From positions 243,970,001 through 244,034,000 of the forward strand of contig OZ024740.1 of the NCBI GenBank assembly GCA_964016885.1: a stretch of 64,000 nt of DNA, given 5' to 3'. This stretch comes from Eledone cirrhosa (Eukaryota). Under the pieces are notes generated by a model. It saw nothing but the letters and a program-made list of their open reading frames with translations, was not told the origin of the DNA and searched no databases. The translations under genes were made by a program, and so were the position numbers. Shown here in pieces: positions 5,356 through 33,434 of this stretch. Positions within the stretch are counted from its first letter, which is position 1. Each line of letters starts with the position of its first letter.

Positions 5356-5655
5356 TTATTCGAGGGGAAATATTTTGTTGCTGGCTTTGTTCAATGGTGA
5401 CGTTTTTCTAATCTGTGGCAAATTAGACTGAGGAGATATGGTGTTGGTGTTAGAATTCTGTTCTAGAGGTATTGTTAGTTGAGAATCTTCATGTGAAGGA
5501 GATGTTTTTAACTGAATTACTTGTTCTTGGCTTTCTTTGGTATCTTTCACTGGAGATATACAGTTGTCGGGCTCAACAGGACTGCTGTTTTCTTCTTCTT
5601 CTGTCGTTACTGTTGACTTCGTTCTAGAGATAAGCCAGTAACATGCATTTGAAGA
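5356..5655 (-). CDS. PstS-domain receptor guanylate-cyclase-like gene, coding exon 3 (terminal)
   Basis: Acceptor TTTTATTTTCAG ends at 5656, phase 0. Translates SSNACYWLISRTKST...KIFPLE*; CYWL matches the terminal TYWL motif of receptor guanylate cyclases. In frame with ORF 5356..5550. Confidence 0.8.
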   Translation of the reverse strand, partial: SSNACYWLISRTKSTVTTEEEENSSPVEPDNCISPVKDTKESQEQVIQLKTSPSHEDSQLTIPLEQNSNTNTISPQSNLPQIRKTSPLNKASNKIFPLE

Positions 5656-6444
5656 CTGAAAATAAAAATATAATAAAAATTTTAAATTCTTAAGCAGTTT
5701 GTCAATATTTGAATAGAATAAATGTTTTCTGCAATGATTTTATGGAAACCCTTCGAAATTGCTAGAGAAAGGACCGCTGTGAGTTGTCATACACACACAC
5801 ACACACACACACACAGACACACACACACACACACACACACACACACACAAACACACACATATATATATATGTATATACTGTATATATATGTATGTGTGTA
5901 TGGGTGTATGTATATTTAAAAAATAATCTTTTTAGGTATGTGTGCCCGGCCGATTAACTCACTCGATATGCAAATTAGGCTGCTCAGCCGTTAATATGCG
6001 TAAGGAAAGTATATACTTTCAGACGTTCAATCATCTGGCAGGAAGGTATACGTTGCTGACGATAGCTAATAAGCTTGAAACTAGTACAGCGTTCCTTTGT
6101 CAGTGTTGAACAAATGAGCAACGATGGTTGCTAGACACTGTACGGCTTAATTCGGGATGTTTGTTTACAAACACACCGAGCATTATAATAAATATTCGGT
6201 GAATCCATACGTACATATATGTATGTATGCATGTATGTATATATATATACATACTATTGTATACATATATGTATGTACGTATACATACTTATATTTAAGT
6301 AACAGCCGTACTAAGAGTGAGAAATGAAATTTCGTTACATTTTTCCGTTTAATCTTTTTATGTTTTCCCATAAAATTTGTCCTCACTTTGTTATGTTTCT
6401 TAAGTTTCTCTCTCTCTCTCTCTCTCTATATATATATATATATT

Positions 6445-6582
6445 TACGTTATACGATCTAGCCCTAGCTAGGATCTTCCAGTGTAACTTATATTGGGTAT
6501 GGTTGTCTTTTAGACTCCAGATATAAGCTGAAAGTGACGTCATATTCCTTCTTAAAGGGTAACGAAAAAAATGGGTATGCAA
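6445..6582 (-). mobile_element. Penelope-like GIY-YIG fragment
   Basis: HTHFFRYPLRRNMTSLSAYIWSLKDNHTQYKLHWKILARAR is nearly identical to the ORF at about 58850-58985. Confidence 0.85.
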
Positions 6583-6829
6583 TATATCAATTAGCAATCA
6601 AATATTGAAGTTTATTCTTTCTTTATCTATCTCTCTCTCTCTCTCTCTCTCTCTCTCTCTCTCTCTCTCTCTCTCTCTCTCTTTCTATATATATATATAT
6701 ATATATATATATATATATATATATATATATATATATAGAGAGAGAGAGAGAGAGAGAGAAGATGAGAGAGTGAGAGGAAGATAGATAAAGAAAGAATAAA
6801 CTTCAATATTTGATTGCTAATTGATATAT

Positions 6830-6955
6830 CGGCCTCAGAAGAATAAAAGGCAAAGTCGACTTCGGCAGGATTTGAACTCAGAAAGGAAAAAAGTATATAA
6901 CTAAATACTGCGAAGTTATTTGTTCGCAGCTCTAATGATTCCGCCAATTCAAACG
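6830..6955 (-). mobile_element. Diverged SINE
   Basis: AAAGGCAAAGTCGACTTCGGCAGGATTTGAACTCAG. Similarly decayed copies lie at about 7470-7600, 9800-9930, 13270-13350 and 14890-15020. Confidence 0.7.
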
Positions 6956-30825: not shown

Positions 30826-31756
30826 ACAGTTGCATTTATCTTGCTTTATGTTCATACGAGTTATAGTTTGTTAAAATTTCTATGTCAGATCGGAGAAGGT
30901 TTATTTGGCGATTGATGTTCTCTTGCCAAGTAGATTTCTTGTGGGAATTCCTTTGTTTTTTCATCTTCACTCCACATAAGTAAGTGGTGACTTTAGCCGA
31001 TGCATAATAGAGATGATTTAAATCAGTAATGTTTAGTTTGTTTGTGATGATAATGTTTTTGAGAATTATGTTAGTCTTGTGTATTATCTTTTGGTTCTGT
31101 TTGGAGTTCTGGATCTTAGGGAGGGTGTCTCGTTGTCCCATGTCAGATTCTTTCATTTTCATCCATTCGATCATAATTTCATCCTTCAAGTTGGCAAGTT
31201 CATTCTCATTCATTTCTTTATCATTTACGATCTCATTATTTTCATTTGGAGTTTCATCTTGAGCATGCACTCCCTCCACTTTTTCGATCCTTTCTTTAAT
31301 TTGTTCTGTTGCCAGTGATTCCGCCCCAACCCTGGGATTCGAAGTGTTACAATTTACCTCGTTTTCACTGACACATGTTTCATTTTCCCTTCGCTGACTT
31401 TGTGCTAATAGCTTGATCTGATCAATTTCTATATCAGTTAGTAACTTTTTTCTTACAATATTTCTTCGTATATTGGCTAGTTTGTTGCTGTCAATATAGC
31501 CTCTGTTTTCGGGATGTTTCTTTTTCCAGTTGATATATGTCTGTTCTGTATTCGATGTATTTGATGGGTAGTACATGGCAGTGTAGAAAGCCTCAAGGAC
31601 TTCTTTATTATCTTCCCTTAACCATTTTTCTCTCTTTTTCTTTGGATTTCTTGGTGGTGAGCATGGAGGGCCAACAGTAGGAGTATTCCGGTTATAGGAG
31701 GTCTCCAGCTCCGAAGTGATGGGAAGGTTTGAACCATTAGCTGATTTTTCGACCCT
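30826..31756 (-). mobile_element. R4/Dong family B internally deleted copy (N-terminal ORF joined to the 3' terminus)
   Basis: N-terminal motif KKREKWLREDN...KLANIRRNIVRKKLLTDIEI. The terminal ~37 nt are identical to the family B 3' end at 19727. Confidence 0.75.
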
Positions 31757-31820
31757 TATTATTATTATTATTATTATTATTATTATTATTATTATTATTA
31801 TTATTATTATTGTTGTTATT

Positions 31821-32655
31821 CCTTGAATCTCAGTCATTGATGTTGGTTAACTGGAAAGTCCGTTGGAATGAATATCAAGCCACTACCTGCAGCCTCAGAT
31901 ATTCAGGACGTATCGGAAGGTTCTTGCTGTTCCAAGCAAGCATGCCTTTTGAAGCGTTCCAAAAAGCTTGACGGGGCCGATTTTCTTTAACCATCCCTGG
32001 AAACTTTTGGAGATAGTCCCCAGTGCGCCTATGACAATCGGGATCACTTTGACTTCATGGCAGTTCCAAATCCTTTTCACCTCCCACTTTAGGTCCTGGT
32101 ATCGGTTAATTTTCTCCCTCTCCTTCTCTTGCACTCTCGTGTCGAAAGGGCAGGCCACATCCACAATCAGACACGATCTTTTTTCTTTGTCCACAACCAC
32201 CAGGTCAGGTCTATTGTGTTCCAGTTTTTTGTCCGTCTGTATCCTAAAATCCCACAGCACCTTCACCTGATTGTTCTCCATCACCGCCTCTGGCCTATGC
32301 TCATACCATTTCTCAGAGTGTGGTAAATTGTTTACTTTGCACAGGTGCCAGTGGATCACCCTGCCCATCACATTGTGTCTCCAGCCCTTATAGTGGGTCT
32401 GGGCTAGGTGTTTACACTCGGACAGAATGTGAGCCACAGTCTCCTCTCTCTCTCTCCACAGATCCTGCACAGTGGGCTAGCCTCCTCCTTGTAAATATGG
32501 TGCTTCAACCACTTCGTTTTGAGGGCCTGCTCCTGCGCAGCCATTAGCATTCCTTCTGTAGCCTTTTTGAGGTCTCCTCTTCTCAACCAGTTCCATGTCT
32601 GTGGATCTCTAAATTCAGTTTTCTCAAAGAAGGTACTATGAAGGGATTTTCCCTT
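31821..32655 (-). mobile_element. R4/Dong family A 3' fragment (CCHC + RLE)
   Basis: ORFs 31895..32470 and 32404..32853 are frameshifted in a CT tract; (ATT)n flanks. Confidence 0.9.
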
Positions 32656-33096
32656 TATTATTATTATCATTATTATTATTATTATTATTATTATTATTAT
32701 ATATATATATATATATATATATATATATATATATATATATATATATATATATATATATATATATATATATATCCTTTTATAATTTTTCTGGGGCATTCGA
32801 AAGGGGACATGCTGGGACTCCCTTCTCTCTTTCTCCCTATCTCCTTCTCTCACTCTATACAGTTATGTATATATATATCATTTATTTATATATATATATA
32901 TCATTTTGTGCGAGCGCGCGTGCACACACACACACACACACCTACACACCCACACATATATATATATTATTGATATGTCATTAAAACCTAATTAAATACA
33001 ATGATAAAGAAGTTATGTACATACATGTTTGTCTATATTAAAGTATACGGAAGTGAGATCGCAGCTGATGTTATATACACAGATAGCTATACTTAC

Positions 33097-33434
33097 CCAG
33101 CCATTGTTGGAAACATTATCAGGTTGGTACTTGCATTTTCTGATAATAAAGTTTCCGAGCCTGCAAAATCCATATTATCTTCGAATTCCATCAATTTAAG
33201 GCCTTTACTGCTTCCTGTTACATTGTAACTTATCTTGAGATCGATGAAAGCTCGTCTCAAGGGCACGTAATTATTAATCCACTGTAAGTAGACTTCTGCG
33301 GGGAAACTGGCACCTACTCCCCGCACTTCAACTTCGGCAGGTTCCTCAGCAGTAACTGAACTTAATCCGAACAGGTTCACTATGAGAGTAACGAAATGCC
33401 GACGAGGAGGACTGAAAAGGTAACCCACCTTCAT
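33097..33434 (-). CDS. PstS-domain receptor guanylate-cyclase-like gene, coding exon 1 (signal peptide + N-terminal PstS lobe)
   Basis: MKVGY...LIVNLFGLSSVTA|EE is signal-like. PstS motifs: RGVGASFPAEVYLQW, YNVTGSSKG, DFAGSE, FPTMAG. Strong donor GG|GTAAGT at 33096, phase 2. Confidence 0.9.

Follow-up and report, generated by a model that had tools for sequence, protein, structure and literature searches.

Animal receptor guanylate cyclases such as NPR1/GC-A, GC-C and the nematode GCY proteins typically possess an ectodomain of the ANF_receptor type, which has the type I periplasmic-binding fold, followed by a transmembrane (TM) helix, a kinase-homology domain, a coiled coil and a class III cyclase domain. 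Bacterial PstS, on the other hand, is a free or lipid-anchored subunit of the PstSCAB ABC transporter. A gene within a 64,000-nucleotide stretch of the genome of the octopus Eledone cirrhosa (GenBank contig OZ024740.1, positions 243,970,001 to 244,034,000; hereafter the window) brings the two together: its predicted product has the inner domains of the receptor guanylate cyclases in the same order, but the ectodomain is of the PstS type and forms the outer part of a spliced, single-pass receptor. Judged from its sequence, the gene represents in octopus a family that dates back at least to the protostomes. The gene is real, and this protostome receptor family, with a phosphate pocket that can be read from its residues, has apparently gone undescribed.

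Gene structure and family membership

Inspection of the window resolves three coding exons on the minus strand with GT..AG boundaries at both introns, giving a spliced protein of 1071 aa. The elements of the gene are as follows.

33434-33097, minus strand: coding exon 1 (338 nt), with the start Met, a probable signal peptide and the first third of the PstS domain; pocket residues S43, F44, S75 and E94 correspond to E. coli T10, F11, S38 and D56
33434-33348, minus strand: probable signal peptide, within exon 1
33096-12999, minus strand: intron 1 (20,098 nt, GT..AG, phase 2), containing several near-identical copies of a long interspersed nuclear element (LINE)
12998-10421, minus strand: coding exon 2 (2578 nt), with the rest of the PstS domain, the stalk, TM helix, juxtamembrane region, pseudokinase, coiled coil and most of the pseudo-cyclase
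12998-12212, minus strand: exon 2 part of the PstS domain; R173, S177, G178 and T179 correspond to E. coli R135, S139, G140 and T141, with S175 instead of D137 and a conserved pair C322/C371
12145-12077, minus strand: single TM helix, about residues 398-420, from hydropathy
11899-11105, minus strand: kinase-homology domain, read as a pseudokinase
11089-10937, minus strand: coiled-coil (signalling) helix
10927-10421, with the last strand in exon 3 at 5655-5626, minus strand: class III cyclase-fold domain, 0/7 catalytic or base-selecting residues
10420-5656, minus strand: intron 2 (4,765 nt, GT..AG, phase 0), placed where ordinary receptor guanylate cyclase genes have the last intron of the cyclase domain
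5655-5356, minus strand: coding exon 3 (300 nt), with the last cyclase strand, a low-complexity tail and the stop codon

An earlier note on this DNA (the original prediction) had proposed the same three exons, about 1071 aa and the same phases, and the model has held up well. At the first junction 16 donor/acceptor offsets were tested, and GT..AG was found at the modelled pair only. In O. bimaculoides, O. sinensis and O. vulgaris, whose database models are 80.5-80.7% identical, and in that of Argonauta (65.9%) the exons are joined alike, and the models align ungapped across both junctions. Pfam places PBP_like_2 on exon 1 (E 1e-4) as well as exon 2 (5e-19), as expected if the 20,098-bp intron splits the PstS domain, and the other two anticipated matches, PK_Tyr_Ser-Thr (2e-32) and Guanylate_cyc (2e-9), both fall on exon 2; exon 3 has no Pfam match. 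Hydropathy gives one strong hydrophobic helix, located after the ectodomain, in keeping with a single-pass layout. The N-terminus probably is a signal peptide given its position and the start Met shared by orthologues, and in the hydropathy scan of the spliced protein its hydrophobicity fell below the threshold used. A pyrimidine-rich AG at 33484-33483 (minus strand) lies 49 nt upstream of the start codon, and in-frame stops occur beyond it; it could serve a non-coding first exon as acceptor. Contigs from four sequencing runs show no joint at exon 2 or exon 1, and because one of these runs (X4) also covers upstream non-coding DNA they are uninformative on splicing or expression. Bacterial contamination or a gene-model fusion was ruled out: one exon encodes most of the PstS domain together with the TM helix and the inner module, and orthologues occur in five phyla.

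Intron 1 contains a LINE cluster (20200-32700) with reverse-transcriptase open reading frames (ORFs) at 23945-21348 and 28408-26216 (RVT_1). It also holds five copies of one 300-nt segment that are 93-98% identical, and from these near-identical copies it follows that the intron grew recently.

The architecture extends well beyond the octopus. Using profiles built from family members, 66 of the best 150 matches inspected (of 4,266 in the 50% library) were found to have one PstS domain and a kinase-like domain. After the matches were pooled and redundant cluster members removed, 182 rows remained, the Eledone protein among them; 92 of these rows have the PstS plus kinase-like layout and make up the family set used here. 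Named members come from the molluscs (cephalopods, a chiton, gastropods and bivalves), the nemertean Tubulanus, the annelids Owenia, Paralvinella and Helobdella, the priapulid Priapulus and the tardigrade Paramacrobiotus, all under automatic names such as 'ANP receptor-like', 'speract receptor' or guanylyl cyclase. No named member was found from arthropods, nematodes, deuterostomes or cnidarians, an absence that is unproven as names cover a minority of the matches. At least three paralogues (P0203, P0204 and P0206), all with degenerate cyclases, are present in the vent snail Gigantopelta aegis.

The gene structure may likewise be shared. Just over half of the family rows (49/92) start at profile positions 80-99, where exon 2 of Eledone begins, and 27 of the 62 cyclase-bearing rows stop at positions 170-180, where it ends; these rows would be single-exon gene calls, and both introns and the long exon 2 would then be family traits. 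Ordinary receptor guanylate cyclase genes differ in this respect, since the Eledone gene has no introns from the middle of the ectodomain to the end of the cyclase. The intron at the K|GKG position, by comparison, is shared: it is present in two of the four ordinary multi-exon cyclase loci examined in the Eledone genome (L019 and L022), absent from a third, and the fourth showed no last exon. This common intron links the inner module with the genes of ordinary receptor guanylate cyclases, and NPR1 aligns continuously over residues 397-957 of an orthologue of the Eledone protein (E 8e-32). Both observations bear out the prediction that the inner part descends from the receptor guanylate cyclases of animals.

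The PstS-type ectodomain, its pocket and its origin

In the ectodomain Pfam matches PBP_like_2 alone and no ANF_receptor, and the predicted fold corresponds to the type II periplasmic-binding group that includes PstS. Superposition of the orthologue's predicted structure on E. coli PstS (1ixh/2abh) gives 1.9 Å over 318 of 321 residues, the outcome anticipated for a PstS fold. Compared with the eight phosphate ligands of PstS (T10, F11, S38, D56, R135, S139, G140 and T141), six residues are identical in Eledone and two are conservative replacements (T10 to Ser, D56 to Glu), while the second-shell D137 is Ser. The cut-off of the PstS model TIGR00975 (205 bits) is narrowly missed by the orthologue P0012 (201.4 bits) and by P0087 (203.4 bits). 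Among the covered rows of the family set R135 is kept in 89/89, S139 in 79/89, G140 in 83/88, Thr or Ser at 141 in 85/89 and D137 in 72/89; for the exon 1 ligands the figures are 23/24 for S38, 24/24 for Asp or Glu at 56 and 19/19 for Ser or Thr at 10, and the median column conservation in the family ectodomain set is 45%. Taken with the fold, these residues make it probable that the pocket binds phosphate.

Several points weigh against this reading. Structural columns are as well kept as those of the pocket (30 of the 254 exon 2 columns rank above S139), so conservation alone cannot single out phosphate. Identity to PstS structures is low at 26-30%, and cephalopods carry two pocket changes, namely D56E (Glu in 7/24 family rows) and the loss of D137. 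A pocket of micromolar affinity that is exposed to body fluid could, moreover, be permanently filled. The low identity and the two changes would also suit a protein in which phosphate is a permanent structural cofactor, or which binds another anion (a phosphorylated metabolite, phosphonate or sulfate) and receives its true signal elsewhere, e.g. from a peptide; the text available of PMC5225109 describes some nematode receptor cyclases in which the ectodomain is dispensable. We consider this alternative unlikely, yet deserving of real weight. The score of 201 bits against a cut-off of 205 might instead indicate a surface scavenger that, like bacterial PstS, hands phosphate to a transporter or regulates one. 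However, capture would not need a strongly conserved pseudokinase and coiled coil, and the intact cyclases of relatives indicate signalling, and a scavenger is accordingly a very improbable explanation.

Beyond the two substitutions (D56E and D137S), the Eledone ectodomain departs from bacterial PstS in having an extra Cys pair, more sequons and a stalk helix. C322 and C371 are each kept in 90/92 rows and likely form a disulfide. Sequons occur at 1.6 per 100 aa, where shuffles give 1.0 and 18 bacterial-type domains give 0.49. The spliced protein also contains the five sequons and three cysteines of the ectodomain that the original prediction had pointed out, all of which favours the proposed adaptation to the secretory pathway.

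PstS domains also head receptors outside the animals. Among 44 proteins picked for length or several TM helices the outputs of such receptors were 7tm_3, TRP-like, cyclase, kinase and PARP, with named examples in Andalucia, Calcarisporiella and Palpitomonas. In a 48-row PstS tree (LG+G4 without mixture; most non-animal and bacterial labels given from architecture, not names), 36 eukaryote-type receptor domains form one clade versus 12 bacterial-type rows (100/100), the latter labelled by size and architecture and taken from the top matches only. Sixteen of the 17 animal rows form a clade of their own (99/97); the tardigrade row falls outside, and constraining it inside is not rejected (p 0.49). 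A recent bacterial transfer is not favoured, as the family reaches back to the protostome ancestor or further and the PstS domain clusters with the receptor ectodomains of protists and fungi, and the domain looks like an old eukaryotic module rather than a fresh bacterial import. Thus, of the proposal that a ligand-domain swap had produced a receptor for phosphate or another oxyanion, the binding part retains its support in the pocket residues and fold, whereas a recent swap from bacteria finds no support. The simplest reading would be that an existing eukaryotic PstS ectodomain and an animal receptor-cyclase module were joined at or before the protostome ancestor, and both inheritance and protist transfer are compatible as the source of PstS in animals.

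Fusions of PstS with class C G-protein-coupled receptors (GPCRs; 7tm_3) were seen in P0121, P0134, P0135, P0144, P0148, P0159, P0175 and P0183. The first of these, from the fungus Calcarisporiella, keeps the pocket residues, and the group are candidate phosphate-sensing GPCRs. Other proteins (P0043, P0044, P0046, P0157 and P0165) have as many as four PstS domains in tandem, or combine PstS with TRP-like membrane regions or PARP.

Pseudokinase, coiled coil and degenerate cyclase

By its signature motifs the kinase-like domain is a pseudokinase, as is usual for receptor guanylate cyclases: the VAIK Lys is R494, HRD is HGN and DFG is DWE. The Lys is found in 9/82 family rows, and HRD and DFG are absent from the 12 commonest forms listed. 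A predicted model of the coiled coil and cyclase, with a predicted local distance difference test (pLDDT) score of 90 and a 38-residue helix, finds its best matches in sGC and GC-A, and the cyclase domain is thereby predicted to keep the class III fold. The active site is another matter. Against NPR1 and Owenia the seven catalytic or base-selecting positions read E819, S863, A859, V927, a gap, I935 and T939 in Eledone, or 0/7; we take the residues normally found there to be two metal-binding Asp, the Glu, Arg and Cys that select guanine, and the Asn/Arg pair of the transition state. The Guanylate_cyc Pfam score is 38 bits in Eledone versus 212-229 in intact members. That score is nevertheless above the Pfam cut-off, which together with the predicted class III fold and the guanylyl cyclase names of orthologues in the databases could suggest that the Eledone protein is a phosphate-activated guanylate cyclase making cyclic GMP (cGMP) itself. 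With both metal Asp, the guanine Glu/Arg/Cys and the Asn/Arg pair all replaced or missing, this is exceedingly unlikely. The Eledone copy is without the residues needed for cGMP and would have to signal otherwise, so the cGMP output that the original prediction allowed for is not supported.

Degeneracy of the cyclase is widespread in the family. In the 54 rows covering the whole site the four catalytic residues are all kept in 11 and none is kept in 25. Among 28 named proteins the full 7/7 set is found in Owenia, Paralvinella, Priapulus and one of two tardigrade copies (Paramacrobiotus P0221), and in 0/21 of those from molluscs, a loss that sets Eledone and all named mollusc copies apart from the animal receptor guanylate cyclases. 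A tree of kinase and coiled-coil columns (43 rows chosen from the pool, cyclase columns excluded) groups 17 dead-cyclase rows from cephalopods, a chiton, gastropods, bivalves, a nemertean and others as a clade at 99/99. A single origin of all dead cyclases is not claimed: 26 rows group at 100 with the cyclase columns, but without them two changes are counted, and as the all-dead grouping depends on these columns the claim extends to the 17-row subfamily only.

Within this mollusc-nemertean subfamily (chiton, limpet and nemertean compared) the pseudokinase is 52-53% identical, versus 39-41% for the ectodomain and 17-20% for the cyclase. The cyclase is also the fastest-changing domain between mollusc classes, at 13-20% identity. 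A Ser/basic juxtamembrane stretch ending QWPG(R/K) occurs in 12/28 named rows, all of them in the subfamily, and the NPR1 segment aligned with it presumably contains regulatory phosphorylation sites. The better-kept pseudokinase and juxtamembrane stretch, combined with the worst-kept cyclase, point to a non-catalytic output.

We propose that the protein is a dimer, by analogy with the receptor guanylate cyclases, in which the two ectodomain lobes would close on inorganic phosphate and in doing so move the stalk, TM and juxtamembrane helices. The ancestral form, which seems to be kept in Owenia, Paralvinella, Priapulus and a tardigrade, would make cGMP, with lobe closure setting its synthesis in the annelid, priapulid and tardigrade members. 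In the mollusc-nemertean subfamily the shift in conservation suggests that the output lies at the surfaces of the juxtamembrane region, pseudokinase and coiled coil, where phosphorylation or the binding of partners would change, and the mollusc pseudokinase and coiled coil would likely be a binding platform, because the cyclase domain is without catalytic residues. For Eledone we see about an even chance that the whole chain holds, i.e. that a phosphate-binding receptor signals without cGMP via its pseudokinase and coiled coil. More broadly, and with a confidence slightly short of even, we suggest that since before molluscs, annelids, priapulids and tardigrades split, protostomes have had a dedicated phosphate receptor combining a PstS pocket with a receptor guanylate cyclase, which would raise or lower cGMP in annelids, priapulids and tardigrades and be doubly pseudo-enzymatic (pseudokinase and pseudo-cyclase) in molluscs.

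A different role for the mollusc protein would be that of a ligand-controlled inhibitory subunit, which through its coiled coil would join an active receptor guanylate cyclase and lower cGMP, with phosphate shifting the pairing. A coiled coil 94-98% identical among Octopus species, the cyclase fold predicted as intact and the many active cyclase genes of the Eledone genome would all suit such a role. There is also a precedent in the obligate heterodimers of ODR-1 and DAF-11 in C. elegans, which the available text of PMC5225109 describes as inactive alone, each supplying part of one active site. However, whereas those two proteins complement each other, the Eledone protein keeps neither the metal-binding nor the base-binding half-site and could therefore not complete the active site of a heterodimer, leaving inhibition as the only possible effect. 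In addition, the fast-changing cyclase domain would make up much of the pairing surface, and no active PstS-type paralogue was found in the Eledone genome, where one PBP_like_2 locus was detected as a lower bound. We regard the inhibitory role as improbable, and favour the phosphate-binding receptor with a non-catalytic output.

Further loci and comparison with described systems

Elsewhere in the window, a full-length match to U6 small nuclear RNA (RF00026, 112 bits) at 41777-41883 (plus strand) is a gene or a retrocopy, and tandem low-complexity repeats at 153-696 read as Thr/Ser-rich or Asn-rich ORFs. ORF fragments at 57533-59141 and 40159-41000 (both plus strand) have no Pfam match and by eye resemble Penelope-type retroelements. 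Outside the window, the Eledone genome contains an intron-free receptor guanylate cyclase ORF of 1677 aa (L015:1474-6504, plus strand; G000:C13 near 7.27 Mb) whose long N-terminal region carries no annotation and which also has ANF_receptor, EGF repeats, a TM helix and kinase-like and cyclase domains; an interrupted relative (L008/L013) lies about 12 kb from it. An intron-free paralogue of 1689 aa (L016:2366-7432, minus strand; G000:C2 near 223.18 Mb) has a cyclase without the Asn/Arg pair and without the Cys. These two proteins could be complementary, or one of them inactive.

As far as we could find, the architecture is annotated but apparently not described. Precomputed Pfam columns show the domain combination, as does one JGI automatic name. 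No paper on it was found in a search of mostly open literature (supplements excluded but for one table), including by the accession numbers of family members, and hence no characterised family came to light. Terms for PBP, phosphate and periplasmic likewise gave no PstS ectodomain in the text available of PMC1435932, PMC5225109, PMC4883820, PMC4758236, PMC3971589 and PMC4053784. An oyster kinome paper, in the portion accessible, counts 23 receptor cyclases by kinase domain, the cyclases being assumed active, and among the first 15 of its 23 receptor cyclase rows are two entries named 'Guanylate cyclase 2G', which possibly belong to the family.

The cyclase-kinases of Acanthamoeba, Physarum and giant viruses are similar in being single-pass receptors with kinase and cyclase domains. 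In the amoebozoan proteins the cyclase is flanked by two kinase domains, and the ectodomain is unnamed in the text found (Clarke 2013, Schaap 2015; PMC4053784, PMC4758236). The Eledone protein, in contrast, has just one kinase-like domain, located ahead of the cyclase, and a single PstS domain, and the inner module of the animal family is of the animal guanylate cyclase type. In an Atlas cluster labelled Discosea 85% of members have PBP_like_2, and P0156 has two PstS domains with a kinase and a cyclase; in their inner modules the PstS-bearing animal rows separate from P0156, with a Shimodaira-Hasegawa-like approximate likelihood ratio test (SH-aLRT) support of 92. The receptors of Andalucia (PstS-TM-cyclase, P0141) and Calcarisporiella (PstS-7tm_3, P0121) have the ectodomain clade in common with the animal family, but the outputs of such protist and fungal proteins are an adenylate-type cyclase, a class C GPCR, TRP-like regions or PARP. 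No paper was found on these PstS-ectodomain receptors either.

How animals sense extracellular phosphate is poorly understood, according to the text available of PMC8199323, which presents CaSR, PiT2 and FGFR1c as the mammalian candidates. In the present family the ligand pocket of the receptor is legible from sequence, and the members with intact cyclases simplify a functional test. If our proposal is correct, this would be the first receptor in animals dedicated to phosphate. It would also give a lead on shell-forming, on feeding and on the chemosensation of seawater by invertebrates, and a ready blueprint for a sensor that converts phosphate into cGMP, while the mollusc form would be an instance of receptor signalling with two dead enzyme domains. 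A bearing on mammalian phosphate sensing is not supported, as no named deuterostome member was found and three mammalian candidates have already been proposed; vertebrate phosphate sensing is thus not explained by this family itself. CaSR, PiT2 and FGFR1c share the function proposed here, but they are unrelated proteins with other main jobs and have no dedicated PstS-type pocket.

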